Shown: positions 2,078 to 59,503 of the stretch, piece by piece
How positions within the stretch are numbered: the first letter of the stretch is position 1
How the letters are laid out: each line of letters opens with the position of its first letter
Origin: an uncultured Thermoanaerobaculia bacterium
GTDB lineage: Bacteria; Acidobacteriota; Thermoanaerobaculia; Multivoradales; JAGPDF01
Reading direction: 5' to 3'
Assembly (NCBI GenBank): GCA_964471955.1
Contig: CAYYIK010000007.1
Span: forward strand, 2,729-66,728
Length of the DNA stretch: 64,000 bases
Program-made: the position numbers and the translations under genes
The notes under the pieces: generated by a model
Database searches by the model: none
The model's input: only the letters and a program-made list of their open reading frames with translations
What the model was told of the DNA's origin: nothing

Positions 2078-2120
2078 CCTCCTCCCCGCCGGCGGGAGAT
2101 GATTTGAACCGTGGTTCAAA
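2074..2120 (+). promoter_or_regulatory. Candidate sigma70-type promoter plus palindromic TetR operator overlapping the tetR start
   Basis: TTGACC (2074-2079), an 18-nt spacer, then GATGAT (2098-2103). A perfect 8+2+8 palindrome TTTGAACC-GT-GGTTCAAA (2103-2120) is centred on the GTG start at 2111. This geometry would give a leaderless or near-leaderless transcript. Confidence 0.4.
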
Positions 2121-2743
2121 CAGCGTCTCCCCTACGCGCGGAGGCCTCCGGCCCCGCCGCCGACCGGCGGCGGCGCGCGATCCTCGCCGCCGCGTCGCGC
2201 CTCTTCCGCGAGCGCGGCCTGCATGCGACCGGTATGCGCGAGATCGCCGCCGAGCTCGGGATGACGGCCGGAAACCTCTACTACTACTTTCCGTCCAAGC
2301 AGGATCTGCTCGCCTACTGCCAGGAGGCGACGCTCGACGAGCTGCAGGCGCTCGCCGTAGAGGTCGCAGCGAGCCGGGACGCCGCCGGCGAGCAGCTCGC
2401 CCGGCTGCTGCGTGGGCACGTCCGGATCCTCAACGAGTCGACGCCGGGCTCGCTCGCCCACCTCGAGCAGAACGAGGTCCCGGAGGCGCGGCGCGCCTCC
2501 CTGCTCGCCCGGCGCAAGCGATACGAAGAGGTCTTCCGGCGGCTGATCGAGGCGGGGATCCGCACGGGCGAGTTCCGGCCCGTCGATCCCGGCCTCGTCG
2601 CGCTGGCGATGCTGGGAGCGGTCAACTGGACCGTCCGCTGGTTTCAGGCCGAAGGCCGCAAGAGCGCCGACGAGGTGGGGCGGGAGTTCGCCGACCTGCT
2701 GGTCGCCGGCCTGAGGAACCTTCCGACGAGGAGCGACGCGTGA
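2111..2743 (+). CDS. TetR/AcrR family transcriptional regulator
   Basis: 210 aa. The N-terminal HTH signature is RRRAILAAASRLFRERGLHATGMREIAAELGMTAGNLYYYFPSKQDLL. Confidence 0.9.
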   Translation: MVQTASPLRAEASGPAADRRRRAILAAASRLFRERGLHATGMREIAAELGMTAGNLYYYFPSKQDLLAYCQEATLDELQALAVEVAASRDAAGEQLARLLRGHVRILNESTPGSLAHLEQNEVPEARRASLLARRKRYEEVFRRLIEAGIRTGEFRPVDPGLVALAMLGAVNWTVRWFQAEGRKSADEVGREFADLLVAGLRNLPTRSDA

Positions 2744-3282
2744 GCGCAGACTGCGAGATGGTGGTGCGCCGGCTGAAGGTCAACGGCGAGGAGCGGACGG
2801 TCGCCTTCCCCGTCCATCACACGCTGCTCGAGGTGCTGCGCGAAGAGCTCGGTCTGCCCGGCACCAAGCACGGCTGCGAACTCGGCGAGTGCGGCACCTG
2901 CACGGTACTGGTCGACGGGGCCCCGATCCTCTCCTGCCTCGCCCTGGCCGACGAGATGGAGGGTCGGGAGATCGAGACGGTCGAAGGGTTGGCGCGGGGC
3001 GGCGAGCTGCATCCGCTGCAGCGCACCTTCGCGGACCTCGGCGCCGCGCAGTGCGGCTACTGCACGCCGGGGATCCTGATGACCGCCAGGGCGCTGCTCG
3101 CCGAGAACGCCACACCGACGCGCCCGGAGATCCGCACGGCCCTGGCCGGCAACCTCTGCCGCTGTACGGGCTACCAGAAGATCCTCGAAGCGGTCGAAGG
3201 CGCTGCGGCGCTCGAGCGCGGAGAACCCTGGGAGCCGACCTCCGAGGCACTGCGCGGCTCCCCCGAGCCGGGGGAACAGTGA
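2740..3282 (+). CDS. Xanthine dehydrogenase family [2Fe-2S]-binding small subunit (CoxS/HcrC-like)
   Basis: This is the C-terminal part of the ORF-track frame 2044..3282. The GTG at 2740 overlaps the tetR stop (GTGA); an alternative ATG lies at 2758. Motifs: CELGECGTC (plant-type cluster), CGYCTPG and CRCTGY (second cluster). Confidence 0.9.
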   Translation: MSADCEMVVRRLKVNGEERTVAFPVHHTLLEVLREELGLPGTKHGCELGECGTCTVLVDGAPILSCLALADEMEGREIETVEGLARGGELHPLQRTFADLGAAQCGYCTPGILMTARALLAENATPTRPEIRTALAGNLCRCTGYQKILEAVEGAAALERGEPWEPTSEALRGSPEPGEQ

Positions 3283-3289
3283 CAATTTT

Positions 3290-3326
3290 AATTACCTCTG
3301 ACTGAATTTACGGGGTCAGGGGCGGG
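3290..3326. repeat. Copy 2 of the 36-37 bp direct repeat
   Basis: AATTACCTCTGACTGAATTT (3290-3309), then A, CGGGG, TC, AGGGGCGGG. It fills the 33-bp convergent gap between the small-subunit stop (3282) and the stop of the minus-strand small ORF (3316), and runs into the end of that ORF. Confidence 0.8.
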
Positions 3327-3510
3327 CGCCGAGGAGGCGGGCGGGCAGGAAGAGGACGGCTTTGAGCAGGGCGAAGACCCCTTCGACGGCGACGCCGAGC
3401 AGGCGGAAGGGGAGCAGCAGCAGCCAGACGATCGGGTAGAGGACGAGCGCCAGCAGGGCGAGCGGCCAGCAGAGGACGAAGAGCAGGAGCCAGAGCAGAA
3501 ACGTGAACAT
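3316..3510 (-). CDS. Small hydrophobic membrane protein (64 aa; two predicted helices)
   Basis: Protein MFTFLLWLLLFVLCWPLALLALVLYPIVWLLLLPFRLLGVAVEGVFALLKAVLFLPARLLGARP. The ATG at 3510 is preceded by GGTGGAGGGGG (Shine-Dalgarno, SD). Codon third positions are GC-rich as in neighbouring genes. It lies on the opposite strand between the small and large molybdoenzyme subunit genes. Confidence 0.6.
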   Translation of the reverse strand: MFTFLLWLLLFVLCWPLALLALVLYPIVWLLLLPFRLLGVAVEGVFALLKAVLFLPARLLGARP

Positions 3511-3587
3511 GTGCACCCCCTCCACCACCTTCTACGCAGCCGCCTCCGCCGGGTTCCAGCCGGCGGGCGGGCGGCGGGAGACCGGCC

Positions 3588-6155
3588 GTGGCTGATCCCG
3601 ATCGCGACGTCCCCGCAGCCGCGCCGAACGCGCGTCCGCTGCGCGTCGTCGGCACCCCCTTCCGCCGGGTCGACGGCTTCGCCAAGGTGACCGGACAGAC
3701 CCGCTACGCCGACGACCTGGACTTTCCGCGCACGGCGCACGTCAAGCTCGTGCGTTCGACGATCCCCCACGGGCGCATCCGCTCCATCGACCTCGAGGAG
3801 GCCGCGAGGCTCCCCGGCGTCCTCGGTTTTCTCACCGGACGCGACCTGCCGACCACCTTCGGCATCCTGCCGGTGTCACAGGACGAGCACCCGCTGGCGC
3901 TCGACCGGGTACGCCACGTCGGCGACCCGGTGGTCGCCGTCGCCGCGACGAGCGAGGACGCCGCCCACGCGGCGGCGCTGGCGGTGAAGGTCGACTACGA
4001 GCCGCTGCCGACCATCGCCACGGTCGAAGAGGCGATCGCGACGCCCGAGCCGCAGCTGCACGAGTACGCCGACCAGGGGAATCTGCACAAGGTCGTGTCG
4101 ATGGAGTTCGGCGACGTCGAGGCCGGCTTCGCCGCCGCCGATCGGGTTTTCGAGGACGTCTTCTTCTACGACGGAAACACCCATCTGCCGCTCGAGCAGC
4201 ACGCCACGGTGGCGCTGCCCGAGGGGGACGACCGGATCACCGTCTGGTCGTCGACCCAGACGCCGCACTACCTGCATCGCGCCCTGACCCGCGTGCTCGG
4301 CCTGCCGGCGTCGCGCATCCGCGTCGTCGCGACCCCCAACGGCGGCGGCTTCGGCGGCAAGAGCGACCCGTTCGGCCACGAGATCGTCTGCGCCGCGATG
4401 GCGCGCAAGCTCGGCCGTCCGGCGCGCATCGCGCTCACCCGCGAGGAGGTCTTCTACTGCCATCGCGGCCGCCACCCGGTGCTGATGCGCCTCAGGACGG
4501 GCGTCTCGAAGGACGGGGCGCTCACCGCGCAGACCCTGCAGACGACCCTCGACGGCGGCGCCTACGGCAGCTACGGCGTCGCGTCGACCTACTACACCGG
4601 GGCGCTCGAGACGGTCACCTACCGGCTGCCGAACTACAAGTTCGAGTCGATCCGCGCCTTCACCAACAAGCCGGCCTGCGGCCCCAAGCGCGGCCACGGC
4701 ACCCCCCAGCCACGCTTCGGCTTCGAGGTGCAGCTCGACAAGATCGCCGTGGCGACCGGGCGCAATCCGGCCGACCTGCGGCTCGCCGTCGTCGAGCAAC
4801 CGGAGACCATCACCGCCAACTGGCTCAAGCTCGGCACCATCGAGCTGGCGCGCTGCATCGAGGCGGTGGTCGCCGGGTCGGGCTACCGCGAGCGCTGGGG
4901 CAGGCTGCCGCGCGGGCGCGGCCTCGGACTCGCCTGCGGCTCCTATCTTTGCGGCGCCGGCCTGCCGATCTACTGGAACCACATGCCGCAGTCGGGCGTG
5001 GCGATCCACGTCGACCGCGGCGGCGGCGTCGCGGTCTTCTGCGGCGAGACCGAGATCGGCCAGGGGTCGGACTCGGTGCTCGCCGCAGTGGTGGCCGAAG
5101 TCCTGGGCGTCGAGATCGCCGACCTGCGGCTCCAGGTCGCCGACACCGCCTTCACCCCGGTCGACCTCGGCAGCTACTCTTCGCGCGTCACCCTGATGAT
5201 GGGGCAGGCGGCGCGCGACGCTGCGGAGAAGGTGCGCGCCACGATCGCCGAGGCGGTCGCGCGGCAGCTCGAGGTCGCCCCCGACCGGCTCGTCTTCGCC
5301 GACCGCCGCGTCTTCGACGCCGCCGATCCCGGGCGCGGCCTCACCTGGGAGGAGGCGGTGATCGCCGCCGAGGCCCGCTTCGGAACGATCGCCACGGCCG
5401 GCAGCTACACCCCTCCCCGCTCGCCCGGCAAGTACCGCGGCGCCGGCGTCGGCCCCTCCCCCACCTACTCCTACTCCGCCGCCGTCGTCGAGGTCGAGGT
5501 CGACGAGCACACCGGCATCTGGCGCCCGCTGCACGTCTGGGTGGCGCACGACATCGGCCGCGCCCTCAACCCGGCACTGGTCATGGGTCAGGTCGAGGGG
5601 GGCGTCTACATGGGTCTCGGCGAAGCGATGATGGAGGAGTCTGCCTTCCGCCGCCTGCCCAGGGCGCGCTCGCAGGCGCTGGTGCACAAGTTCCCCAGCC
5701 TCCTCGAGTACAAGAGCCTGACCTTCGAGGAGATGCCGCCGGTGACCACCTACCTGATCGAAGAGCCCGATCCGGCCGGCCCCTTCGGCGCCAAGGAGGT
5801 CGGCCAGGGGCCGCTGCTCCCCCTGCCGCCCGCCTGCGCCAACGCCATCTTCGACGCCGTCGGCGTGCGCGTCGACCAGGTGCCGATCCACCCGCACATG
5901 GTGCTCAAGGCGCTCGAAGCGAAGGCGAAGGGGAGCGAGCCCCGCTACGGCCCGGCGACCTTCCCCGAGGTCGACTTCGGCTTCACCCTGCAGGTGCCGA
6001 CTCCCTGGGAGGGGGGCGACGGCAGGGCGTCGAACGAAGAGGAGTTCAAAGCGGCCACCGGGCGCAAGTCCCGCGCCGGGACGATGACCGAGCGCAGCGA
6101 AGCGCTGCGCTCGGGAAGCGTCGCAGCCCTGACGACGAAGCTGAAGGAATCGTGA
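3588..6155 (+). CDS. Xanthine dehydrogenase family molybdopterin-binding large subunit (CoxL/HcrA-like)
   Basis: 855 aa, GTG start. The N-terminus RVVGTPFRRVDGFAKVTGQTRYADD matches the a/b-hammerhead signature. It has the NGGGFGGK motif and FGAKEVGQGP near the C-terminus. A C-terminal tail of roughly 85 aa (KGSEPRYGPATFPEVDFGF...KLKES) extends beyond the usual family end. Confidence 0.92.
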   Translation: MADPDRDVPAAAPNARPLRVVGTPFRRVDGFAKVTGQTRYADDLDFPRTAHVKLVRSTIPHGRIRSIDLEEAARLPGVLGFLTGRDLPTTFGILPVSQDEHPLALDRVRHVGDPVVAVAATSEDAAHAAALAVKVDYEPLPTIATVEEAIATPEPQLHEYADQGNLHKVVSMEFGDVEAGFAAADRVFEDVFFYDGNTHLPLEQHATVALPEGDDRITVWSSTQTPHYLHRALTRVLGLPASRIRVVATPNGGGFGGKSDPFGHEIVCAAMARKLGRPARIALTREEVFYCHRGRHPVLMRLRTGVSKDGALTAQTLQTTLDGGAYGSYGVASTYYTGALETVTYRLPNYKFESIRAFTNKPACGPKRGHGTPQPRFGFEVQLDKIAVATGRNPADLRLAVVEQPETITANWLKLGTIELARCIEAVVAGSGYRERWGRLPRGRGLGLACGSYLCGAGLPIYWNHMPQSGVAIHVDRGGGVAVFCGETEIGQGSDSVLAAVVAEVLGVEIADLRLQVADTAFTPVDLGSYSSRVTLMMGQAARDAAEKVRATIAEAVARQLEVAPDRLVFADRRVFDAADPGRGLTWEEAVIAAEARFGTIATAGSYTPPRSPGKYRGAGVGPSPTYSYSAAVVEVEVDEHTGIWRPLHVWVAHDIGRALNPALVMGQVEGGVYMGLGEAMMEESAFRRLPRARSQALVHKFPSLLEYKSLTFEEMPPVTTYLIEEPDPAGPFGAKEVGQGPLLPLPPACANAIFDAVGVRVDQVPIHPHMVLKALEAKAKGSEPRYGPATFPEVDFGFTLQVPTPWEGGDGRASNEEEFKAATGRKSRAGTMTERSEALRSGSVAALTTKLKES

Positions 6156-6170
6156 AGAGATCGTGAAGAG
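6149..6170. repeat. 11-bp perfect tandem duplication spanning the large-subunit stop codon
   Basis: ATCGTGAAGAG (6149-6159) is repeated at 6160-6170. The first copy contains the TGA stop at 6153-6155. Confidence 0.85.
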
Positions 6171-6330
6171 GAAAGAAGCAAAGGCCTTTTTGTTCAAGAC
6201 AAAGGCAAAGGCAGAAGCTTCCATAGAAGGGAAAAGAGGGGACTGGGGCGTGGGCTGGGCGGGTGAGTCGATTGCGGCGGGCCAGAAGCCGGGTGAAGCC
6301 TGGATTCCTTTCTCCGATGCCGAGGGCGAG

Positions 6331-6493
6331 GGGGCCGGGAAAGTTTCCCGGCAGGGAAGCTCGAAGGCCCCATCACCTGAGCGGTGGGCCGGCACTCCCG
6401 GTTCAGATCGGGGCCTGAGCGCAGGAGCGCACCCGCCGTCGTTGCCGGCACTCGTGCGCGCCGGTTCCCGGCCGGGGAACTTTCCCGGCCCCC
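6331..6493. repeat. Inverted-repeat pair (about 22 nt) inside the 405-bp repeat-rich spacer 6156-6560
   Basis: GGGGCCGGGAAAGTTTCCCGGC (6331-6352) matches the reverse complement of 6470-6493, GGGGGCCGGGAAAGTTCCCCGGCC. Each arm is itself nearly palindromic (CCGGGAAAGTTTCCCGG). Between them, GCCGGCACTC...CCGGTTC occurs twice, at about 6388 and about 6444. Confidence 0.75.
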
Positions 6494-6560
6494 TCGCTTC
6501 CACCTCCCGCTGAACGAGGACGAACATGTCCAGAACCAGGAAGTCCGAGAGGAAGCACCG

Positions 6561-7571
6561 ATGCTGAGAATGCCGGGGTTCCGGCTGCTGCGCCCCGAGA
6601 GTCTGGCGGAGGCGGCGGCCATGCTGGCGGGCGAGGGCGAGGGGGCGCGGCTGGTCGCCGGCGGGACCGACCTCTTCCCCAACCTCAAGCGCCGCCACCA
6701 GAAGGCGACGGCCGTCATCTCGCTCGCCCGCGCCGCGCGACGCGATCCGGCCCTCGCCGCGGTGTCGGTCGGGCCCGGTCCCGTCGGCGACTTGCGGCTC
6801 GGTCCGATGGCCCGCCTGTCGGCCATCGAGCGCGATCCGCGCGTGCGGGCCGGCTGGCCGGCGCTCGCCCGGGCGGTGGCGTCGATCTCCTCGCCGGTGC
6901 TGCGCAACATGGGGACGATCGGCGGCAACGTCTGCCTCGACACCCGCTGCACCTACTACAACCAGAACGAGGAGTGGCGGCGGTCGATCTCCTACTGCAT
7001 GAAGGCCGAGGGGAAGGTCTGCTGGGTCGCGCCCTCGTCGCCGCGCTGCTGGGCGGTGCAGAGCGCCGACTCGGTGCCGATGCTCATCGCGCTCGGTGCC
7101 CGCGTCCGTCTTCTCTCGGCCGCCGGCGAGCGCGAAGTGCCACTCGAGGCGCTCTACCGCGACGACGGGATGGACTACCTGACCCTGAGCCCCGGCGAGA
7201 TCGTCACCGGCATCGCGGTCCCCGCCGCATCCGCGGCCTCCCGGCTGCGCACCGCCTTCTTCAAGCTGCGCCGCCGCGGCTCGATCGACTTCGGCGTCCT
7301 GTCGGTCGCCGTCGCGCTGCGGCTCGAGGCGGATGTCGTCGCCGATGCGAAGATCGTCCTCGGCTCGATCGCGTCGTTCCCCTCCCCCGCCGCTGACGCC
7401 GCCGCCGAGCTCGTCGGCAAGCCGCTCACCGAGGAGACGATCCGCGCCGCCGCCGCGAAAACACGCACGGCCGCGACGCCGATGGACAACACCGACCTCG
7501 ACCCGCGCTGGCGCGGCCAGGTGACGCCGGTGTACGTCGAGCGCACCCTGCGCGAGGCGGCCGGTCTCTGA
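6561..7571 (+). CDS. Xanthine dehydrogenase family FAD-binding subunit with extra Cys-rich loop (HcrB-like)
   Basis: ATG at 6561 within the ORF-track frame 6384..7571; 336 aa. FAD motif LVAGGTDLFPNLK. A Cys-rich insertion C125-x4-C130-x15-C146-x7-C154-x8-C163 is absent from ordinary CoxM/XdhB-type subunits. Confidence 0.9.
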   Translation: MLRMPGFRLLRPESLAEAAAMLAGEGEGARLVAGGTDLFPNLKRRHQKATAVISLARAARRDPALAAVSVGPGPVGDLRLGPMARLSAIERDPRVRAGWPALARAVASISSPVLRNMGTIGGNVCLDTRCTYYNQNEEWRRSISYCMKAEGKVCWVAPSSPRCWAVQSADSVPMLIALGARVRLLSAAGEREVPLEALYRDDGMDYLTLSPGEIVTGIAVPAASAASRLRTAFFKLRRRGSIDFGVLSVAVALRLEADVVADAKIVLGSIASFPSPAADAAAELVGKPLTEETIRAAAAKTRTAATPMDNTDLDPRWRGQVTPVYVERTLREAAGL

Positions 7572-16164: not shown

Positions 16165-17841
16165 ATGACCCGAGAGCGCGAAACGCTGGAGATGGACGTC
16201 CTCTTCGTCGGCGCCGGGCCGGCGAGCCTCGCCGGGGCCTGTCACCTGGCCCGGTTGCTCAAAGCCCACAACGCGCACGCCGCGACGCCGGTCGAACTGA
16301 CCCTCGCGGTGCTCGAGAAGGGCGCCGAGGTCGGTGCCCACGGCTTCTCCGGAGCGATCGTCGACCCGCGCGGGTTCCGCGAGCTGTTTCCCGAGAAGTT
16401 CGACCAGATCCCCTTCGAGGCCGAGGTGGGCGCCGAGCACCTCTGGTGGCTCACCGAGAGGCGCGCCCGCTCGCTGCCCGAGCCACCGCCGATGCAGAAC
16501 CACGGCAGCTACGTCGCGTCGCTCGGCCGGCTGGTCAAGTGGATGGCGAAGGAGGCCGAGGCGCTCGGCGTCGACGTCTTCTGCGAGTTTCCGGGCCGCG
16601 AGCTGCTGATGGAAGGCGACCGGGTCGCCGGCGTACGCACCGGGGATCGCGGCGTCGGCAAGGACGGGCGGCCGAAGCCGAACTACGAGCCCGGGGTCGA
16701 CATCCGGGCCGGCATCACCCTGCTCGGTGAGGGGCCGCGCGGCACGCTCGCCAAGCAGCTCGACGCCCGTCTCGACCTGTCGGCGGACGCCAATCCGCAG
16801 GTCTACGCCATCGGCATCAAGGAGGTCTGGGAGCTTCCCAGGGGGCGCTTCGAGGCCGGCGACATCTGGCACACCATGGGCTGGCCGCTGTGGCCCGACC
16901 TGTTCGGCGGCGGCTTCCTCTACGGCATGCAGGACGACCTGCTGATCACCGGCCTGGTCGTCGGGCTCGACGCCGAGAACCCGTGGACCGACCCGCACCT
17001 CGAGTTCCAGCGCTACAAGACCCACCCGGCGATCGCCTCCCTGCTCGAGAACGGGAAGATGGCGTACTACGGCGCCAAGGCCATCCCCGAGGGGGGGTAC
17101 TGGGCGATGCCGCGACTCGGCGGCGACGGCTTCTGCCTGATCGGCGATTCGGGCGGCTTCGTCGACGGCCAGCGGCTCAAGGGGATCCACCTGGCGATCA
17201 AGTCCGGCATGCTGGCCGCCGAGGCGATCTTCGCCGCCGCCGTCTCCGGCCGGCCGCTCGCCTCGGCGGGCACCGACTATCCGGCCCGCTTCGAAGCGAG
17301 CTGGGCGAAGCAGGAGTTGTGGAAGAGCCGCAATTTCCATCAGGGGTTCGAGCGCGGCGGTCTCGACGCGCTGATCAACGCCGGCCTCGGCGTGCTGACC
17401 GGCGGCCGCGGCTGGGGGGTCGTCGACCGCCTGCACTCGGTGGCCGGGCACGAGCGCCTGCTGCGCCTCGACAGCGAGCGCAGCGACCTGCGCCCCGCTC
17501 CGCCGGTGCCGGTCGACGGCGAGCTGACCTTCGACCGCCTGGCCGACGTCTACAACTCCGGAACCGCGCACGAGGAGGACCAGCCGGTGCATCTCCTGGT
17601 GGCCGACCTGTCGATCTGCGTCGACCGCTGCGTGCGCGAGTTCGCCAACCCCTGCACCCGCTTCTGCCCGGCCGCGGTCTACGAGATGGTCGACGATCCG
17701 ACGCAGCCGCGCGGCAAACGGCTGCAGATCAACGCCAGCAACTGCGTCCACTGCAAGACGTGCGACATCGCCGATCCGTACCAGATCATCACCTGGGTGC
17801 CGCCCGAGGGGGGCGGCGGGCCGAACTACGGTCGCATGTAG
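16165..17841 (+). CDS. Electron-transfer flavoprotein:ubiquinone oxidoreductase (ETF-QO)
   Basis: 558 aa. N-terminal FAD fold DVLFVGAGPASLAGA. The C-terminal 4Fe-4S region is CTRFCPAAVYEM...NCVHCKTCDIADPYQIITWVPPEGGGGPNY. SD GGAGGGACC precedes the ATG. Confidence 0.93.
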   Translation: MTRERETLEMDVLFVGAGPASLAGACHLARLLKAHNAHAATPVELTLAVLEKGAEVGAHGFSGAIVDPRGFRELFPEKFDQIPFEAEVGAEHLWWLTERRARSLPEPPPMQNHGSYVASLGRLVKWMAKEAEALGVDVFCEFPGRELLMEGDRVAGVRTGDRGVGKDGRPKPNYEPGVDIRAGITLLGEGPRGTLAKQLDARLDLSADANPQVYAIGIKEVWELPRGRFEAGDIWHTMGWPLWPDLFGGGFLYGMQDDLLITGLVVGLDAENPWTDPHLEFQRYKTHPAIASLLENGKMAYYGAKAIPEGGYWAMPRLGGDGFCLIGDSGGFVDGQRLKGIHLAIKSGMLAAEAIFAAAVSGRPLASAGTDYPARFEASWAKQELWKSRNFHQGFERGGLDALINAGLGVLTGGRGWGVVDRLHSVAGHERLLRLDSERSDLRPAPPVPVDGELTFDRLADVYNSGTAHEEDQPVHLLVADLSICVDRCVREFANPCTRFCPAAVYEMVDDPTQPRGKRLQINASNCVHCKTCDIADPYQIITWVPPEGGGGPNYGRM

Positions 17842-17873: not shown

Positions 17874-20099
17874 ATGCGCGCGACGACGAAATCACGGTGG
17901 ATACCCGGGATCCTGCTGGCGCTCTGCGCCACGACGCTGCCCCTGCCGGCCGCGGCCGCGACGGGCGAGACGCCGGGTGGCGAAGTCCCGTTCGAGGCGC
18001 TGTTCGATCCGGCCCTGATGCCTCGTCTGACGGGCCTCGCGTGGAATGACGACGGCAGCCGCTTTGCCGGAGTCTGGCGCGACGGCAAGCGGCGGGGAGT
18101 CCGGATCTTCGACGGCGCGACCGGCGCCGATCTGGTGACGGCCTTCGCCGACGAACTGATCGAGGGGCCGCCGGTGCCCGACGCCACGGCGGCGGCCGCC
18201 ACGCTCGGCAAGCTCTCCGGCTTCGCCTTCCGCCCCGGCTCGAACGAGCTGCTGCTGGTCGCCGACGACGACCTCTTCCTCTGGGACCCGGCGGGGCGTA
18301 CGGTCCGCCGCCTCACTCGAGGCCCCGCCGAGGAGGAGGGGGCGACCTTCTCCCCCGACGGCCGTCGCCTCGCCTTCTCGCGCGATGCCGATCTCTGGGT
18401 GCTCGACCTGGCCAGCGGCGGTGAGCGGCGGCTGACCGAGGACGGCCGCCCCGACGAGATCCTCAACGGCACGACCGACTGGGTCTACTGGGAGGAGATC
18501 TGGGGGCGCGACGCGACGGCCCTCTGGTGGTCGCCGGACTCGCGCTCGCTCGCCTACTACCGCTTCGACGAGACCGGCGTGCCGACCCATCCGCTCCTTG
18601 CGGAACGCGAAGTGACAGCGAAGGTGACGCTGCAGCGCTATCCCAAAGCCGGCGATCCGAATCCCGACGTCGCCGTGCGCGTCGTCGAAGTCGACAGCGG
18701 CGCGATCGTCGAGCTGGCGACCGGCGAGGCGCCGGGCGACTACCTGGCGCGCGTGCACTGGGCGAGCGACCCGGGTGCCGTGGCGGTCGAGCGACTCGAT
18801 CGCGACCAGACGCGGCTCGACCTGCTGCACTGCCGGGCCGACAGCGGCAGCTGCGTCGAGCTGGCGAGCCAGCAGGCCACGACCTGGGTCAATCTCTCCA
18901 AGGACTACCGCCCGCTCGACGACGGTGGCTTCCTGTGGAGCCACGAGGGGGGCGGCTGGCGGACGCTGCACCGCCACGACCGGCTCGGACGCAGCCGCGC
19001 CGATCTCCTGCCGTCCGGCTGGGCGCTCGAAGAGGTCGTGCAGGTGCTTTCCGAACGCGGCGAAGTCATCGTCACGGCACACCGCACGTCCGCGCTCGGA
19101 GCGCTCGGCCGCAGCGTGCTGGCGCTCGACCTGACGGGACGCAAGGCGCCTCGCCTGCTGGCCGACGGACCGGGTTGGCATGGCGCACATGTGGCGGCCA
19201 CCGGGACCTGGATCCACAGCTGGAGCGACGCCCATACCCCGACCGAGCTGCGCCTGCGCGACGCCGAGGGCGGGGAACTCGCTCTGCTGCCCGGCGGCGT
19301 CGAACTGCCCGCCGCGCTCGCCGCCCTGCCGCGCTGGGAGGTGACGACGATCCCGGCGGCCTCCGGAGCTGCGCTGCCGGCGCGTTTCATCCCGCCGGCC
19401 GGGGCGCCGGACGAGCGCCACCCGGCGATCACCTACCACTACGGCGGCCCCGCCTCCCAGGTGGTGATCGATCGCTGGGAGGGGCCGCGCGGGCTCTGGC
19501 ACCGCTGGATGGCGAGCCGCGGCTATCTCGTCCTGTCGCTCGACAACGAGGCCTCGCGCTTCTTCGGCAAGCCCGGCGAGGATCGGCTGCACCGCCGCTT
19601 CGGCGAGCTCGAGCTGGCCGGCCAGCTCGACGGCGTGCGCTGGCTCGGCAATCGGTCCGACGTCGACGTGCAGCGCATCGGCCTCTGGGGGTGGTCCGGC
19701 GGCGGATCGAACACGCTCTACTCGGTGCTCCACCGACCCGGTACCTGGAAGGCGGCGGTGGCCGGCGCGCCGGTGACCGACTGGCGCCTCTACGACTCGA
19801 TCTGGACCGAGCGCTACCTCGACACGCCGCAGGACAACCCCGACGGCTACCGCGACTCGTCGCCGATCAGCGCCGCCGAGAGCCTCGCCGACGCGGTGCT
19901 CCTCGTCCACGGAACCGGCGACGACAACGTCCACCCGCAGAACTCGATCGCCCTGATGGCGAAGTGGATCGCCGCCGGCAAGCGCTTCGAGGAGGCGATC
20001 TACCCGGACGAAAAGCACGGCTTCTCACCCGCGGCGGGCCGCCACTTCTATCGCCGGATGACCGACTTCTTCGACCACCAGCTGCAATCGGCGCGCTGA
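17874..20099 (+). CDS. S9 family serine peptidase (dipeptidyl-peptidase IV-like), secreted
   Basis: ATG at 17874 in track frame 16890..20099; 741 aa. Signal peptide MRATTKSRWIPGILLALCATTLPLPAAAA. WWSPDSRSLAYYRFDETGV marks the beta-propeller part. Triad motifs: GLWGWSGGGS (Ser), VHGTGDDNVH (Asp), DEKHGF (His). Confidence 0.9.
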   Translation: MRATTKSRWIPGILLALCATTLPLPAAAATGETPGGEVPFEALFDPALMPRLTGLAWNDDGSRFAGVWRDGKRRGVRIFDGATGADLVTAFADELIEGPPVPDATAAAATLGKLSGFAFRPGSNELLLVADDDLFLWDPAGRTVRRLTRGPAEEEGATFSPDGRRLAFSRDADLWVLDLASGGERRLTEDGRPDEILNGTTDWVYWEEIWGRDATALWWSPDSRSLAYYRFDETGVPTHPLLAEREVTAKVTLQRYPKAGDPNPDVAVRVVEVDSGAIVELATGEAPGDYLARVHWASDPGAVAVERLDRDQTRLDLLHCRADSGSCVELASQQATTWVNLSKDYRPLDDGGFLWSHEGGGWRTLHRHDRLGRSRADLLPSGWALEEVVQVLSERGEVIVTAHRTSALGALGRSVLALDLTGRKAPRLLADGPGWHGAHVAATGTWIHSWSDAHTPTELRLRDAEGGELALLPGGVELPAALAALPRWEVTTIPAASGAALPARFIPPAGAPDERHPAITYHYGGPASQVVIDRWEGPRGLWHRWMASRGYLVLSLDNEASRFFGKPGEDRLHRRFGELELAGQLDGVRWLGNRSDVDVQRIGLWGWSGGGSNTLYSVLHRPGTWKAAVAGAPVTDWRLYDSIWTERYLDTPQDNPDGYRDSSPISAAESLADAVLLVHGTGDDNVHPQNSIALMAKWIAAGKRFEEAIYPDEKHGFSPAAGRHFYRRMTDFFDHQLQSAR

Positions 20100-21148
20100 G
20101 CGGCCGGCGTCGCGAGCCAGTCCCGCAGGTCGCCGGCGACTTCGGCCGCGAGGGGTCGCCGGGCGGGGTCGGAGCGCAGGCAGGATCGCACCAGGCGACC
20201 GAATCGGCGGTCGACGAGCTGGCCGGCCGGCGGACGCTCCGCCGCGAGACCCGAGAGGACGAGGGCGAGCGGGCGGCCGGAACGGTTCCACAGTCGGCTT
20301 CCCGTGGCCGCCTCGAAGAGCAGCAGGCCGACGCCGTAGATGTCGGCCGGCGCTCCGACCGGCTGGCCGCGCAGCTGCTCCGGTGCCGCGTAGTCGAGCG
20401 TGAAGACCCACAGGTCGCTGCTCGAAGCGCGATCCCCTCCTTCGGCGATCAGGGCGGCGATGCCGAAGTCGAGCAGGTGCGCCCGTCCGTCCGCCCCGAC
20501 GATCACGTTGGAAGGCTTCACGTCGCGGTGCGCGACACCGTGGCCGTGCGCCCAGGCGAGCGCTTCGCAGACCTCCGCGATCCTCTCGACTCGCGCGTCG
20601 AAGTCCGACTCGGCGCGCGCCATCCAGGTCCGCAGGCTCTCGCCTTCGACCCACTCGGTGACCAGGTAGGGGCGCCCCGTGGGCGTCTCGCCGGCGCCGA
20701 GGAAACTCACGATGCCCGGATGAGAGAGCGACGCGAGAATCCTGCCTTCGCCGAGGAAGCGCCGCGCCAGGGCGCCGCCGGAAAACTCCCGCCGCAACAG
20801 CTTGAGCGCCACGGGCGGCCCCCCGACCCGCGGCTCGGCCCGGAAGACCTCGGCCGCCGCCCCGGCGCCGACCCGCGCGAGCCGGACGTAGCCGGGGACC
20901 TCCGGCGTGGCCCCGGCCGCGCCCGGGTCCGGCGACTCCGATCGCGTCACCAGGGCGAGCAGATTCGCGGCGTCGAGGTCGAGAACGGACCGGTCGGCGC
21001 CGAGCAGCGACGCCAGCCTTTCGGCGAGCGGGCGGTCCGCGGTGGCCAGCTCGGCCAGCCGGCGCCGGCGCGCTGCCGTTTCGAGATCCAGCAGCTCGTC
21101 GAGGAGCGGTTCGATCGCGCTCCAGGGAGGGCCGGGATCCGGGGTCAT
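20048..21148 (-). CDS. Ser/Thr protein kinase, short soluble form, translationally coupled to the ECF sigma factor
   Basis: The ATG at 21148 overlaps the sigma-factor stop (ATGA). 366 aa. Motifs VALKLL (Lys), HRDVKPSNVIV, DFGIA, YAAPEQ. No hydrophobic segment follows the kinase domain. The 3' end overlaps the convergent S9 peptidase gene by 52 nt. Confidence 0.88.
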   Translation of the reverse strand: MTPDPGPPWSAIEPLLDELLDLETAARRRRLAELATADRPLAERLASLLGADRSVLDLDAANLLALVTRSESPDPGAAGATPEVPGYVRLARVGAGAAAEVFRAEPRVGGPPVALKLLRREFSGGALARRFLGEGRILASLSHPGIVSFLGAGETPTGRPYLVTEWVEGESLRTWMARAESDFDARVERIAEVCEALAWAHGHGVAHRDVKPSNVIVGADGRAHLLDFGIAALIAEGGDRASSSDLWVFTLDYAAPEQLRGQPVGAPADIYGVGLLLFEAATGSRLWNRSGRPLALVLSGLAAERPPAGQLVDRRFGRLVRSCLRSDPARRPLAAEVAGDLRDWLATPAAQRADCSWWSKKSVIRR

Positions 21149-21723
21149 GCGGGATATCCGAGGCGTTCGAGCTCGAGGCGGAGGAAGGCGCGGGCCTTGC
21201 GCCAGTCGCGGCGAACCGTCCGCTCGCCGCGCCCGATCACCAGCCCGATCTCGCACTCGGTCATGCCGCCGAAGAAGCGCATCTCGACGATGCGCGCCAG
21301 CTCGGGCGCCGCCTTCTCGAGCTCGCCGAGAGCGGCGTCGACCGCCAGCAGCTGCCCCGCCTGCCAGGTCGCCGGATCGGCGATCTCTTCGGGCAGCGGA
21401 ACGTGGTGCGCGTCGCCGCCGCGCTTCCGGCGGTGGAGCCGCTCGGCTTCCGAGAGCAGGACCTGCCGCATGGCGCGCGCCGCCAGGCTGAAGAAGTGCA
21501 CCCGATCGACCGGAGTCAGGCGCGACGTCCCGCTCACCCGCAGGTAGAACTCGTGGACCAGCGCCGTCGTGTCGAGCGACGAACTGCCGCGAATCCGCCG
21601 CAGCTGGGCGCGCGCCAGCCGGGCCAGCTCGCCGTAGACGCGTTCGAAGACGCGGTCGAGGCTGGCACGGTCGCCGCCTCGCGCCGCCGCGAGCAGCAGA
21701 GTGAGATCCTCTTCGGTCTCCAT
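21145..21723 (-). CDS. ECF-type RNA polymerase sigma-70 family factor
   Basis: Region 2 (LVHEFYLRV) and region 4 HTH (MTECEIGLVIGRGERTVRRDWRKARAFL). ATG 21723 (METEEDL...) is preferred; the track ORF allows a GTG at 21804. Confidence 0.88.
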   Translation of the reverse strand: METEEDLTLLLAAARGGDRASLDRVFERVYGELARLARAQLRRIRGSSSLDTTALVHEFYLRVSGTSRLTPVDRVHFFSLAARAMRQVLLSEAERLHRRKRGGDAHHVPLPEEIADPATWQAGQLLAVDAALGELEKAAPELARIVEMRFFGGMTECEIGLVIGRGERTVRRDWRKARAFLRLELERLGYPA

Positions 21724-21724
21724 C

Positions 21725-21768
21725 GGGTGGGTCGCCGGCGCCCATGTTAGCGCCGGAGCGACCCACCC
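21725..21768 (-). terminator. Strong GC-rich hairpin between the S8 peptidase stop and the ECF sigma start (terminator/attenuator or translational-control candidate)
   Basis: An 11-bp stem (21725-21735 with 21758-21768), a 2-nt bulge, a 6-bp stem (21736-21741 with 21750-21755) and an 8-nt loop. On the minus strand, the arm nearest the start codon ends 1 nt before ATG 21723. Confidence 0.45.
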
Positions 21769-21782
21769 GCGGATGTCCTGCG

Positions 21783-24599
21783 TCACAGGGCGGTGGCCGA
21801 CCACTCCAGCAGATCGCCGCCTTCGAAGTCGTCCGAGAAGAGCGATGCCGGCAGGACGATCACCTGGAAGGAGACCGCGCCACCGGTGAGATTCGCCACT
21901 ACCAGGCCGAGCCAGTCACCGAGAGCCGCGGGATTGTTCAGGCCCCCCCGCTCGGTCGCGGTCCCGGAGCTGGAACGGTTGCGCGCCAGCACGTACTCGC
22001 TCTTGCGCTTCGTCCAGCTGGCGGAGTTCGCCGGATCGGAGCGGTATCCGTAGATGGCGAGGTCGGCGCTGCCGCTCACCGGGACGACGCGGACACGGCG
22101 ATGGCTCGCCGCCGGAACCCAGACGTCGAAGACCGAGAGGACGTTCGCGGCTGCGTGCGTCACCGGCCCGAGCGTGATCGGTGAGCTGGAGCTTCCGGCT
22201 CCCAGGCCGAGGTTGGTGAACTGCAGATTGTAGCCATCCGTGCCCGCGAACCGGTAGACGCGGTAGTGCTCCTGGGTCGTCGTCCGGTGATTGCCGTCCA
22301 CCGCGACGAAGTCGATGGCGCTGCCGGCGTAGGTCGACGTCTCGTTGACCGTCCGCACGCCGGGGTTGACGAACAGCGAGTGACTGGCGAGCTCGAGGTC
22401 GTGATCCGAGGTTCCCGCCGGACGGATTCCAACGGCGCGCCAGTAGTTGTTCGGCGACCAGTCGGCCGGAAAGACCGCGAGGTGGGTGCCCGTCGGCGCG
22501 GGCACCTGATCGGTATAGCCGACCTCGGGCACGATCCGGTACTCGCCGCGCCACCAGCCGGCGCCGAGCCAGGTGCCGCCCGAGCTCCAGTCGGACGAGA
22601 AGAGCGAGGCGCGGAAGCGGTAGGTCTCCGAGGCTGGAGCGATGAAGTCGATGATCTCGTAGGCGTTGCGGACGCTCGACGAGCAGGTGATCACCGTCGT
22701 GTTGTCGGCGCGATAGGCGCACAGGTCGATGTCGGCCGGCAGCGGGTCCGTGGTGTAGGCCGCGTTGGGGTTGGTCGACCAGGCGATGGCGAAGCGCACC
22801 CGCTCGCCCGCGTAGGCGTACTGCGAGTAGTTGATGGGGAACGTCGTCGTCGAACCGATGGACTGGACCGCCCAGTTGCCGCGCTCGGCCGAGGCCGCCG
22901 CCGCCGCGCCGACGATGCCACCCGCGCCGTCCTTGTCCGAAAGGCGCGTCGCCCCTTCGACGTTGTGGATCGCCGTCGCCATCAGCAGCGCTTTGACCGC
23001 CTCCGGGTCGTTCTCGATCGCCGGGTCGACTTCCATCACGTCGGCGGCGAGCGCCGTGACCATCGGTGCCGAGTAGCTGGTGCCGCTGCCGACGGGGCCG
23101 ATCCAGGGGCTGGAGGTCGTCGTGCTGGTGATCGAGGAGCCGACGCCGGCGATTTCGGGCTTCTCCTGCGTCCCGGTGCCGGCCGAGTTGTTCGGGTTGC
23201 CGAAGCTCGAGCAGTTCGACATCACGTCGCCGGTCCACGTCAGGCTGTCGAGGTCGTCGTAGTTGCCGACCGCCAGGATGTTGTGCCCCTTGGCGGGCGA
23301 GGTGACGTAGGTCGAGAAGTTGCCGCCGCACCCGTTGCCGAAGTTGCCCGCCGCAACGACCACCGTGTCGAAGTGGGAGCGCACGAAATAGTCCATCTGC
23401 CGATCGACACTCCAGAAGTTCGGGTTGTTGGCGCTGTCCCAGTACCAGCTGTTGTTGAGCACGCGGGCGTTGGACGACCCCCACTCCATCGCCGCCGACA
23501 TGACGCCGAAATCGGAGTAGCTGCCGTTGGCGCTGTGCAGGTCGACTTCGTCCGCCAGGCCGTGCTGCGTCGCGTCGGTGCTGCGCACCATGCCGCCCAC
23601 GGCGGTCGGATGGCTGGCGTAGGGCTGTCCGCAGGCGTAGCAGGCGGAGAGGGTGAGGAACGGATTGGCGAACGAGGCGCGCTCCCCCTCGGTGATCGAC
23701 ACCTCGACGCCCGTGCCGTCGTAGCCCACGTTGTTGGGCACCAGCATGTTCTGCGTCGGGCGCGCGTTGGCGAGCAGCGGGCCGCCCTGCCCCGAAGCGT
23801 CGTAGAGCGCGTCGATCTCGGGCCAGAAGGCGAGTTCCTCGAGGACCTCCCGGCGCCCTTCGAGCACGACGAGCGGGGAGAGCTCGCCGGCGAACGTGAT
23901 GTCGAGGTCGAGCGCCGTCACGCGGCCGAGGAAGTCGGCGCGCGCCGGCGCGATGAGCTCGCGGATCAGTCGCTGGCGCTCGGCGTCCTCGGCGCGCAGG
24001 GCCGCCTGGACCGCTTCGCGGTGCGCCTCGCGGCGCGGATCGACGATACGAAGATCGCCCGGCTCACCCTTGGAGAGCTCGGGGGCGGCGTCGGCGCGGG
24101 TCACCGGAGCGTCCGGATCCGGCTCGGCGGCCTCGCCCAGCGCGCTGCCGGCCTCGCGGCCGGTCGGCTTCGGAGCGAGTCGCTCGTCCGGCAGGGCCGA
24201 CAGGTCGACGGCGAGCCAGGCCGTGACGCGCAGGCGATCCGCCGGGCCGAGCTGGTCGAGGTGCCGGCGCAGGTCCGGGGTAACGGCGCCGTGGCGGGCC
24301 CGCCAGGCGTCTCCCGCCCGCCGGATCTCGGCGTAGCGGTCGACCACCCGCTCGCCGTCGAGCGCCACGCCGACGATCTCGCCGGTTGCCCGGTCGATCG
24401 CCTTGACGGTCTCGATCCGGCGGCCGTCGGCCAGCGTGTCGACGGTCGTCTCGATCTTCTCGATCGAGTCGGGATCCAGGCCCAGGGCGGCCGCCAGGCG
24501 ATCGCCGGCATCCTCCGCCCGGACGGGAGCCGCCAGGGGGAGCGCCCCCAGCAGCAATGAGGTGAGCAGTGCGGTTCTGATTCGACCGGAATTTCGCAT
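21783..24599 (-). CDS. Secreted subtilisin-like (S8 family) serine peptidase with long N- and C-terminal extensions and the C-terminal GFExGD-W tag
   Basis: 938 aa. SD GAGGAGGAATCG precedes the ATG. Signal peptide MRNSGRIRTALLTSLLLGALPLAAPVRA. Serine motif GTSYSAPMVTALAADV, His region ASHPTAVGG, and AAGNFGNG. The protein ends LFSDDFEGGDLLEWSATAL. The catalytic Asp could not be placed by eye. Confidence 0.78.
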   Translation of the reverse strand: MRNSGRIRTALLTSLLLGALPLAAPVRAEDAGDRLAAALGLDPDSIEKIETTVDTLADGRRIETVKAIDRATGEIVGVALDGERVVDRYAEIRRAGDAWRARHGAVTPDLRRHLDQLGPADRLRVTAWLAVDLSALPDERLAPKPTGREAGSALGEAAEPDPDAPVTRADAAPELSKGEPGDLRIVDPRREAHREAVQAALRAEDAERQRLIRELIAPARADFLGRVTALDLDITFAGELSPLVVLEGRREVLEELAFWPEIDALYDASGQGGPLLANARPTQNMLVPNNVGYDGTGVEVSITEGERASFANPFLTLSACYACGQPYASHPTAVGGMVRSTDATQHGLADEVDLHSANGSYSDFGVMSAAMEWGSSNARVLNNSWYWDSANNPNFWSVDRQMDYFVRSHFDTVVVAAGNFGNGCGGNFSTYVTSPAKGHNILAVGNYDDLDSLTWTGDVMSNCSSFGNPNNSAGTGTQEKPEIAGVGSSITSTTTSSPWIGPVGSGTSYSAPMVTALAADVMEVDPAIENDPEAVKALLMATAIHNVEGATRLSDKDGAGGIVGAAAAASAERGNWAVQSIGSTTTFPINYSQYAYAGERVRFAIAWSTNPNAAYTTDPLPADIDLCAYRADNTTVITCSSSVRNAYEIIDFIAPASETYRFRASLFSSDWSSGGTWLGAGWWRGEYRIVPEVGYTDQVPAPTGTHLAVFPADWSPNNYWRAVGIRPAGTSDHDLELASHSLFVNPGVRTVNETSTYAGSAIDFVAVDGNHRTTTQEHYRVYRFAGTDGYNLQFTNLGLGAGSSSSPITLGPVTHAAANVLSVFDVWVPAASHRRVRVVPVSGSADLAIYGYRSDPANSASWTKRKSEYVLARNRSSSGTATERGGLNNPAALGDWLGLVVANLTGGAVSFQVIVLPASLFSDDFEGGDLLEWSATAL

Positions 24600-26366: not shown

Positions 26367-27617
26367 TCAGGCGTGCCGGCGCATCAGCAGGGCGCCGTTG
26401 GTGCCGCCGAAACCGAAGGAGTTCGTCAGCGCGACGTCGATCTTCGCCGCGCGGGCCGCGCCGGGGACGAAGTCGAGGTCGCACCCCTCGCCGGGCGTCT
26501 CCAGATTGATCGTCGCCGGCATCACCTGCTCGCGCACCGCCATCGCCAGGATGCCGCACTCGAGGCCGCCGGCGGCGCCGAGCAGGTGTCCGGTCGACGA
26601 CTTGGTCGACGACATCGCCAGCTTCTCGGCGTGGGCGCCGAAGACGTCCCGTACCGCGTGCACTTCCGCGAGGTCGCCCAGCGGGGTCGAGGTGCCGTGG
26701 GCGTTGATGTAGTCGACGGCCTCCGGAGCGAGCTCCGCGTCGGCGAGGGCATTGCGCATCACCGAGGCGGCACCCCTTCCCTCCGGGTGCGGCGCCGCCA
26801 TGTGGTAGGCGTCGCCACTCATGCCGTAGCCGACGATCTCGCAGTAGATCGGAGCGCCGCGGCGGCGCGCCCGCTCGTACTCCTCGAGCACCAGGATGCC
26901 GGCCCCCTCGCCGATGACGAATCCGTCGCGCTCCCGGTCCCACGGGCGGGAGGCGCGCTGCGGATCGTCGTTGCGCGTCGACAGGGCGCGCATCACCGAA
27001 AAGCCGGCGACGGTGATCGGCGTGATCGCCCCTTCCGACCCGCCGGCGATCGCCGCGTCGGCGTAGTCGTGCTGGATCAGGCGAAAGGCGTCGCCGACCG
27101 CGTGCAGCCCCGACGTGCAGGCAGTGCAGGGGGCGGTGTTGGGACCGCGGGCGCCGAAGCGGATGGAGACCTGGCCGGCGGCCAGGTTGACGATGACGCC
27201 CGGAATGAAGAACGGCGAAACGCGCGACGGGCCACGCTCGACCAGGGTGCTGTGCGTCTTCTCGATCATCGGGAAGCCGCCGATCCCCGAGCCGATGACC
27301 ACTCCGACGCGGTCGGCCAGCTCCTCGTCGATCTCGAGACCCGAGTCGTCCATCGCCATCTGGCTCGCCGCCAGCGCGTAGAGGATGAAGAGGTCCATCT
27401 TCTTGACCTCCTTCTTCTCCACCCAGCGCTCGGCTTCGAAGCCGGAGAGTTCTCCGGCGATACGCGTCTCGTAACCGGAGGTGTCGAAACGCGAGATCGC
27501 CCCGACGCCGCTTCGCCCCGCCATCAGACCCTCCCAGGTCTCGCGGGTTCCGATGCCGAGCGGGGACACCAGTCCCACCCCGGTCACGACGACGCGTCGT
27601 CGGTCACTTCTCGCCAT
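26367..27617 (-). CDS. fabF: 3-oxoacyl-ACP synthase II
   Basis: ATG at 27617 (MARSDRRRVVVTGVGLVSPLG) within the track ORF; 416 aa. Active-site regions APCTACTSG, INAHGTSTP and NSFGFGGTN. It follows acpP. Confidence 0.95.
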   Translation of the reverse strand: MARSDRRRVVVTGVGLVSPLGIGTRETWEGLMAGRSGVGAISRFDTSGYETRIAGELSGFEAERWVEKKEVKKMDLFILYALAASQMAMDDSGLEIDEELADRVGVVIGSGIGGFPMIEKTHSTLVERGPSRVSPFFIPGVIVNLAAGQVSIRFGARGPNTAPCTACTSGLHAVGDAFRLIQHDYADAAIAGGSEGAITPITVAGFSVMRALSTRNDDPQRASRPWDRERDGFVIGEGAGILVLEEYERARRRGAPIYCEIVGYGMSGDAYHMAAPHPEGRGAASVMRNALADAELAPEAVDYINAHGTSTPLGDLAEVHAVRDVFGAHAEKLAMSSTKSSTGHLLGAAGGLECGILAMAVREQVMPATINLETPGEGCDLDFVPGAARAAKIDVALTNSFGFGGTNGALLMRRHA

Positions 27618-27663
27618 GATGTCTCGGTGACTCGTTGCCGCCCGCCCGCCGGCGGGCGCGCAC

Positions 27664-27909
27664 TCAGTTCTTCTGTCCGGCGTGCTGCTCGATGTAGCTG
27701 ACGGCCTCGGAGACGCGGCCGATCTTCTCGGCATCCTCGTCCGGGATCTCGATGCCGAACTCCTCCTCGAAAGCCATCACGAGCTCGACGATGTCGAGGG
27801 AATCGGCTCCGAGATCGTCGGTGAAGCTGGCGTCGGCGGAAACCTCGTCGGCTTCCACGCCCAGCTGCTCGACGATGATGCTCTTGACCTTCTCGGCTAC
27901 GGTCGACAT
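27664..27909 (-). CDS. acpP: Acyl carrier protein
   Basis: 81 aa with the phosphopantetheine site [20 protein letters not shown]. Confidence 0.97.
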
Positions 27910-28018
27910 GTGATGCGTTCCTCCTTGAAGGGGGGCCCGGTCCGGGCCGGGCGATTTTTAGCACACTCCGCGCGGGCGAGTCCAACGCCGCACGGCGGCG
28001 CCGGAAGGGCCGCGAAGC

Positions 28019-28762: not shown

Positions 28763-28776
28763 GTTCGATTCGCTCC

Positions 28777-29703: not shown

Positions 29704-29736
29704 GCCTCTCCCCTCCCTGCGTCCAGCGGTGACGGT

Positions 29737-50309: not shown

Positions 50310-50321
50310 GACGTCTCACTC

Positions 50322-50825: not shown

Positions 50826-50835
50826 GACGGCCTCC

Positions 50836-59444: not shown

Positions 59445-59503
59445 AGAGACTCCGCAGGCGCGATACAAGCGTCACGCGACGGTTTCGTCGTGGCGCGCGC
59501 GGC

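Follow-up and report, generated by a model that had tools for sequence, protein, structure and literature searches.

The locus described here raises the question of whether a molybdenum enzyme that carries the iron-sulfur loop of 4-hydroxybenzoyl-coenzyme A (CoA) reductase (4-HBCR) has to be such a reductase itself. It lies in a 64 kb stretch of DNA (72% G+C; hereafter the window) of contig CAYYIK010000007.1 from an uncultured Thermoanaerobaculia bacterium, and comprises the genes for a TetR-family regulator and for the gamma, alpha and beta subunits of a xanthine-oxidase-family enzyme. A first-pass annotation had noticed the loop in the flavin adenine dinucleotide (FAD) subunit, beta, and regarded the enzyme as probably reductive and not an aerobic hydroxylase. 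As judged from sequence comparison, the enzyme belongs to a distinct, uncharacterised orthologous family, widespread in metagenome-assembled genomes (MAGs) of Thermoanaerobaculia, Planctomycetota and Burkholderiales. As for its function, the evidence seems about evenly balanced on whether it is a cytoplasmic, TetR-controlled, Hcr-derived molybdoenzyme that would use low-potential electrons, received through the loop cluster, to deoxygenate an aromatic and probably CoA-activated substrate.

The loop is encoded by the last gene of the operon:

6561-7571, plus strand: beta (FAD) subunit, 336 aa; ATG at 6561, stop codon at 7569-7571; Pfam FAD_binding_5 and CO_deh_flav_C
6933-7049, plus strand: Hcr-type [4Fe-4S]-binding insertion, codons of Cys125 to Cys163; ungapped alignment to HcrB, with Cys130/146/154/163 as proposed ligands

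The residues pointed out in the first pass, Cys130, Cys146, Cys154 and Cys163 at spacings of 16, 8 and 9 with Cys125 nearby, were confirmed in the translation of this open reading frame (ORF). The positions it had given for HcrB (Cys122, Cys138, Cys146 and Cys155), and with them the spacing, proved correct in the 1RM6_B chain sequence, from which the HcrB numbering is taken (Cys117, 122, 138, 146 and 155). The beta subunit has five cysteines in total, all of them in this region; positions 6933-7049 translate as CLDTRCTYYNQNEEWRRSISYCMKAEGKVCWVAPSSPRC, where the cysteines are spaced 5/16/8/9. In a phmmer search of all PDB chains the top match of beta was 1RM6_B, the beta subunit of 4-HBCR of Thauera aromatica (E=7e-52), aligned as a single stretch that runs ungapped through the loop. 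The loop region alone retrieved the same chain with E=5e-23 and zero gaps; Cys125/130/146/154/163 align to HcrB Cys117/122/138/146/155, and 23 of the 43 loop residues (53%) are identical. Meanwhile the FAD subunits CoxM/CutM, QorM and NdhF (nicotinate dehydrogenase) and that of glyceraldehyde oxidoreductase, which are 278-296 aa long, gave matches in two stretches that omit beta residues 126-167, in line with the earlier statement that ordinary CoxM/XdhB-type subunits lack the loop.

All five loop cysteines are invariant in 120 database homologues (65-100% identity) and also across 80 loci, all from MAGs, that were obtained by scanning the GTDB species genomes with beta (48-87% identity). In a distant Hcr-like relative (L087) the first cysteine is replaced by Ala and the remaining four are kept, which fits Cys130, Cys146, Cys154 and Cys163 as the ligands. 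The AlphaFold2 model of beta (predicted template modelling score 0.85) has 1RM6_B as its best Foldseek match, with template modelling (TM) scores of 0.77/0.80. On these alignments, the beta loop is homologous to the [4Fe-4S] insertion of HcrB and no chance likeness, as the first-pass annotation had supposed, and we infer that the four ligand cysteines would bind a cluster.

Kinship with 4-HBCR extends to the other two subunits. For each of the three the best NCBIfam model is the Hcr one, yet every score remains below the equivalog cut-off: TIGR03195 for beta (252.7 bits vs 404.55), TIGR03194 for alpha (767.5 bits vs 994.55) and TIGR03193 for gamma (179.1 bits vs 257.8). The top PDB match of alpha is 1RM6_A with E=1e-163, the next one being at 4e-72, and Foldseek aligned its AlphaFold2 model to the 1RM6 alpha subunit with TM scores of 0.80/0.89; its identity to HcrA is 39%. 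Since the scores lie below the equivalog cut-offs, the identity to HcrA is only of this order and no benzoyl-CoA gene or ferredoxin gene was found in the 64 kb, orthology with Thauera HcrCAB is rejected on the basis of sequence.

Two departures from HcrA reside in the alpha subunit:

3588-6155, plus strand: alpha (molybdopterin) subunit, 855 aa; Pfam Ald_Xan_dh_C, MoCoBD_1 and MoCoBD_2
5805-5807, plus strand: codon CAG of Gln740, in the column of the family catalytic Glu, from alignment to HcrA and xanthine dehydrogenase (XDH)
5928-6152, plus strand: C-terminal extension of alpha, aa 781-855 (~75 aa); EGGDG at aa 808-812, nucleotides 6009-6023

In the xanthine oxidase family the catalytic Glu is Glu1261 in the bovine enzyme and Glu730 in that of R. 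capsulatus. The alpha segment FGAKEVGQG aligns to GAKEASEG of HcrA (Glu726) and to KAVGEPP of R. capsulatus XDH (Glu730), so that Gln740 occupies the catalytic column. An equivalent Gln is present in essentially every orthologue (84 loci, L001-L084) and in 117 of 120 database matches to alpha. In an alignment of 127 alpha sequences (125 full-length representatives of 50%-identity clusters, denoted by P numbers below, together with the window protein and HcrA), the column holds Glu in 118 cases and Gln in four, namely the window protein, its family representative P0121, P0125 (49% identity) and P0163 (40% identity). Published accounts describe this Glu, which activates the Mo-OH group, as essential to hydroxylation, and exchange of the corresponding Glu for Ala abolished all activity of the D. 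gigas enzyme (PMC10420851, PMC3624778). Hence, the replacement of this residue by Gln disfavours an ordinary hydroxylase.

HcrA and most of the aligned alpha representatives have no such C-terminal extension; the core of the extension, P.P.EGGDG, is kept in all three phyla. Its per-residue model confidence (predicted local distance difference test, pLDDT) is 82-90 at aa 781-820 and below 56 beyond, and the tail is probably disordered after its first ~40 residues. The idea that an acidic residue of the EGGDG tail substitutes for the lost Glu was weakened by the Gln-bearing P0125 and P0163, which have no such tail.

The beta subunits at the 80 loci are 57-87% identical to the window protein in Thermoanaerobaculia and other Acidobacteriota, 49-58% in Planctomycetota (the MAG L033 being labelled Proteobacteria only) and 48-53% in Burkholderiales and Betaproteobacteria. 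The alpha subunits from loci of the three phyla share 58-95% identity with that of the window, which indicates a functional enzyme under selection. Database matches to alpha and beta are metagenomic throughout; in IMG they are labelled "4-hydroxybenzoyl-CoA reductase subunit alpha/beta" (HcrA/HcrB), and the NCBI PGAP names are generic only. Literature searches for a connection of Hcr with these phyla or with box genes turned up nothing useful.

A neighbour-joining tree built from the alpha representatives puts the window protein into a 16-member Hcr-like group, in which HcrA and its representative P0143 are basal. A phylogeny of the large subunit had been proposed as a check in the first pass. 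All members of the group have KRGHG where the others have RGFG, GAKE where the others have GAKG, and an active-site insertion, which in the window alpha comprises aa 456-468. The window protein, P0121 and P0125 form a clade of Gln bearers. Its sister, P0122, is a gamma-alpha fusion from Ignavibacteriales that keeps the Glu and is 51% identical to the window protein. The P0122 cluster contains BcrB-, BcrA/D- and Had-like genes, each with its best NCBIfam match below the curated cut-off, together with genes for an acyl-CoA dehydrogenase and for an indolepyruvate:ferredoxin oxidoreductase alpha subunit, the latter above its cut-off. Next to P0125 are genes for a CoA ligase of the PaaK type, for aconitase-like subunits, for 2-oxoacid:ferredoxin oxidoreductases and enoyl-CoA hydratases, and for a TetR_C_24 regulator. 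The beta subunits that accompany P0122, P0125 and other Hcr-like clades also have the 16/8/9 cysteine loop, so the loop is a trait common to the whole Hcr-like radiation. As far as the tree and these neighbourhoods tell, the window enzyme descends from within that radiation, among enzymes found in anaerobic aryl-CoA contexts.

The remaining elements of the plus-strand operon, which spans 2111-7571 in the order TetR-gamma-alpha-beta, are as follows:

2111-2743, plus strand: regulator of the TetR family, 210 aa, with which the module begins; Pfam TetR_N and TetR_C_24
2758-3282, plus strand: gamma subunit for two [2Fe-2S] clusters, 174 aa; ATG at 2758; Pfam Fer2 and Fer2_2
6156-6560, no strand: non-coding alpha-beta spacer, 405 bp; 64% GC vs 72% in the window

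All subunit domains exceed the Pfam cut-offs and represent the general domain set of the xanthine oxidase family. Eight cysteines of gamma make up the two usual motifs, CELGECGTC...C and CGYC...CRC. The alignment of gamma to the 218-position PaoA profile begins at position 60, leaving unmatched the first ~59 positions, which we take to be the export signal of PaoA. A TetR orthologue is located immediately 5' of gamma in 29 loci with enough flanking sequence, from all three phyla. The nearest solved relatives of the regulator include KstR2, Mce3R and FadR, which are sensors of acyl-CoA thioesters.

The 405 bp spacer has no consistent reading frame and resembles only the closest relative (L005); in relatives the alpha-beta interval varies from 0 to 1200 bp. 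An Rfam scan of the window, spacers included, yielded no match. In two Acidobacteriota loci (L019, 8862-10000; L041, 8794-10000) the alpha-beta gap contains an ORF that, judged from its translation, is serine hydrolase/beta-lactamase-like, with an SVSKLF motif. The gamma-alpha gap of 305 bp (3283-3587) is the site at which the operon of a Thermoanaerobaculia subclade contains an Amidohydro_3 gene (L001, 5762-7375; L004, L007, L009, L015 and L029). The same loci have two further amidohydrolase genes downstream.

In 10 Planctomycetota loci (L024 at 3173-6381, L025, L030, L032, L034, L035, L038, L044, L053 and L062) boxB and boxC are situated divergently upstream of the orthologous operon; boxB scores 705 bits with TIGR03225, above the cut-off, and boxC 689 bits with TIGR03222, vs a cut-off of 712. 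These genes encode the benzoyl-CoA epoxidase and dihydrolase of the oxygen-dependent benzoyl-CoA pathway, the epoxidase of which needs O2. Judged by gene content, this adjacency links the family to benzoyl-CoA metabolism in that lineage only. L024 has a panD gene beside the box genes, and eight of the other box loci have there an ORF that belongs to the same cluster. The neighbours in Burkholderiales (MnmC, Sir2) and in the other Planctomycetota are housekeeping genes, and none of the hints provided by box genes, amidohydrolases or TetR relatives is conserved family-wide.

Taken together, the cofactor motifs of the enzyme form a complete set: the four-Cys loop, the FAD motifs, eight [2Fe-2S] cysteines and the Hcr-type motifs of a Mo-pterin subunit. 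A ferredoxin-like low-potential donor, encoded elsewhere, would deliver electrons to the surface [4Fe-4S] cluster, from which they would pass to FAD, to the two [2Fe-2S] clusters and finally to Mo, where an aromatic substrate would lose an oxygen function; this substrate would probably be a CoA thioester. An aryl-CoA thioester substrate would also release the TetR repressor. The cofactor chain in this scheme is deduced from the motifs, the direction of flow and the class of substrate from phylogeny and context. The substrate may or may not be 4-hydroxybenzoyl-CoA; the first-pass annotation was right in its caution that sequence by itself does not supply it. The proposal of aromatic deoxygenation draws on the contexts of the Hcr-like P0122 and P0125, on Gln740, on the box neighbours in Planctomycetota and on the acyl-CoA-sensing relatives of the regulator.

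Several observations weigh against it. The loop alone is no proof of reductive flow: the FAD subunit of PaoABC, which is oxidative, is reported to contain a [4Fe-4S] cluster (bioRxiv 10.64898/2026.07.15.738685), whereas UcdCFO, the urolithin C 9-dehydroxylase of Enterocloster, is reductive with an FAD subunit devoid of the loop (PMC11760930), which makes the loop dispensable for reductive chemistry in the family. Therefore, the step from loop to reductive enzyme taken in the first pass did not stand on its own, whereas its doubt about a hydroxylase gained independent support from Gln740, a feature that it had not noticed. Since HcrA retains its Glu (Glu726), Gln is no signature of reductive chemistry either and represents a change relative to 4-HBCR as well. 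The AlphaFold2 confidence in the beta loop is low (pLDDT 36-69), as expected for a model from which the cluster is absent, and the neighbour-joining tree carries no support values. Benzoyl-CoA pathway and ferredoxin genes, which the first pass had proposed to look for, were not found in the 64 kb window: genes for benzoyl-CoA reductase, the box enzymes, an aryl-CoA ligase and ferredoxin are all missing from it, and a six-frame scan of it for the ferredoxin motif CxxCxxCxxxCP gave none. Clustering of the neighbours at 56 loci with 10-kb flanks revealed nothing that is kept beyond TetR-gamma-alpha-beta. The O2 requirement of the boxB epoxidase suggests that strict anaerobiosis does not hold for all of the hosts, and the intra-operon amidohydrolase of the Thermoanaerobaculia subclade hints at a different substrate class. 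Nevertheless, the Hcr-type loop, the nesting among Hcr-like enzymes and the absence of the hydroxylase base favour, on sequence grounds, a reductive or at least non-hydroxylase role.

How far does this differ from simply calling the enzyme a 4-HBCR? That it is a true 4-hydroxybenzoyl-CoA reductase we consider rather unlikely, though the identical Cys spacing, the motifs of the Hcr-like group and the preference of all three subunits for the Hcr models and 1RM6 speak for it, as do the Hcr names in IMG. Besides, the sister P0122 resides in a benzoyl-CoA-reductase-like cluster, yet with TIGR03195 its beta scores no more than 259 bits, close to the value of the window beta, so this cut-off is strict; and boxB/boxC beside the operon in some Planctomycetota mean that the product could be benzoyl-CoA. 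These points are opposed by the missed equivalog cut-offs, the 39% identity of alpha to HcrA, the Gln in the Glu726 column, the extra conserved alpha tail and the generic NCBI PGAP names; moreover, neither a 4-hydroxybenzoate-CoA ligase nor a benzoyl-CoA reductase was found close to the window operon or as a conserved neighbour at the 56 loci. A variant that takes the Glu-to-Gln change and the EGGDG tail at face value would be a 4-HBCR-derived enzyme with chemistry undescribed in the family, e.g. aryl-CoA dehydroxylation or deoxygenation that, in hosts other than strict anaerobes, would feed the oxygen-dependent Box pathway; this, too, seems rather unlikely.

An oxidative dehydrogenase or hydroxylase, acting for instance on an N-heterocycle or an aldehyde, with the [4Fe-4S] cluster as the electron exit to ferredoxin or another acceptor as in PaoABC, strikes us as improbable. 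Amidohydrolases are typical companions of heterocycle hydroxylases, and they occur inside and near the operon in the Thermoanaerobaculia subclade; the family is present in Burkholderiales and Planctomycetota; and PaoB of E. coli (5G5G_B) and the aldehyde oxidase (AOX) of Methylobacillus (5Y6Q_B) are oxidative with a cluster loop at that very site. Their four cysteines, however, pass through the region with indels and other spacing, and their loops match the loop query with E=0.09 to 2.5e-4 vs 5e-23 for HcrB, i.e. the loop of the window protein is of the ungapped 16/8/9 Hcr type. PaoC is likewise distant from alpha (181 bits vs 550), gamma lacks the ~59 N-terminal PaoA-profile positions, and the Glu of hydroxylation is Gln in the family (PMC10420851, PMC3624778). 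Furoyl-CoA dehydrogenase HmfABC, picolinate dehydrogenase and others of this kind were set aside for want of conserved companion genes; all are hydroxylases and Glu-dependent by the family mechanism. AtcABC (1-testosterone hydratase/dehydrogenase), considered on account of a Sterolibacterium MAG match, was dropped as there are no steroid genes nearby. Finally, the loss of the catalytic Glu and the unusually long spacers (405 bp between alpha and beta, 305 bp between gamma and alpha) could be read as inactivation and operon erosion in a catalytically dead or decaying paralogue. This seems hardly credible, given three intact ORFs, an alpha that remains 58-95% identical over three phyla, the invariance of the Gln, the cofactor motifs and the five cysteines, the cognate TetR gene kept with the operon and the many metagenomic clusters of close homologues.

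The rest of the window encodes a patatin-like lipase, peptidases, an electron-transfer flavoprotein (ETF):quinone oxidoreductase, a fatty-acid synthesis cluster, glycosyltransferases, transporters and adhesin-like giants. Some of these can be delineated:

16165-17841, plus strand: ETF:quinone oxidoreductase, which points to a host with quinone-linked respiration
20048-21766, minus strand: ORF with a Ser/Thr kinase domain (region 17892-21804)
21145-21804, minus strand: extracytoplasmic function sigma factor adjoining the kinase-domain ORF
26367-30762, minus strand: fatty-acid synthesis genes of the plsX, fabD, fabG and fabF types
49788-51336, minus strand: three tandem small phage-tail-collar ORFs
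51373-56514, minus strand: 1713-aa cadherin/Big_9 protein
56511-59468, minus strand: 985-aa DUF11-repeat protein

At 17.9-20 kb long overlapping ORFs with no Pfam match occur on both strands, and the gene calls are uncertain there.

The textbook example of inverted electron flow among xanthine-oxidase-family enzymes is 4-HBCR, which is also, to our knowledge, the only characterised enzyme type with the Hcr-type loop. The loop marks a radiation much larger than 4-HBCR, one large branch of which is automatically annotated as HcrA/HcrB in metagenomes, yet has neither the catalytic Glu nor benzoyl-CoA pathway neighbours. Claims of "anaerobic 4-hydroxybenzoate degradation" made for metagenomes from KEGG orthology may therefore be over-calls. 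The cysteine loop itself is already covered by automated Hcr annotation; what is new is the Gln substitution, the C-terminal tail, the TetR linkage and the phyletic spread. The family amounts to a natural experiment on the role of the conserved Glu in reductive vs oxidative Mo chemistry.

Among known systems, the closest are HcrCAB of Thauera aromatica (PDB 1RM6/1SB3) and HbaBCD of Rhodopseudomonas palustris. Three subunits in the order gamma-alpha-beta are shared with them (in Thauera the genes are arranged hcrC-hcrA-hcrB, i.e. small-large-medium), as are the beta insertion with equal Cys spacing, ungapped and with 53% loop identity, the best profile and structural match for every subunit, and the RGHG, GAKE and active-site insertion of alpha. 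Unlike these enzymes, the one described here has Gln in place of HcrA Glu726 and the ~75-aa EGGDG tail, a TetR gene kept upstream, a neighbourhood from which genes for benzoyl-CoA reductase, CoA ligase and ferredoxin are missing, and hosts among uncultured Thermoanaerobaculia, Planctomycetota and Burkholderiales.

PaoABC-type enzymes keep the catalytic Glu. PaoABC and the 5Y6Q enzyme resemble the present one in a four-Cys loop inserted at the equivalent place in the fold, after the GGN motif and before the next helix, but they are oxidative and periplasmic, their Cys spacing differs and their large subunit is distant, and the gamma subunit here has no counterpart of the N-terminal region of the PaoA profile. 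With CoxM/CutM, XdhB, QorM and NdhF it has in common the FAD_binding_5 plus CO_deh_flav_C fold and the FAD motifs; those subunits, at 278-296 aa, have no equivalents of residues 126-167 and belong to oxidative enzymes with a catalytic Glu. UcdCFO, a xanthine-oxidase-family member as well, is a reductive phenol dehydroxylase, but the [4Fe-4S] loop present here is missing from its FAD subunit.

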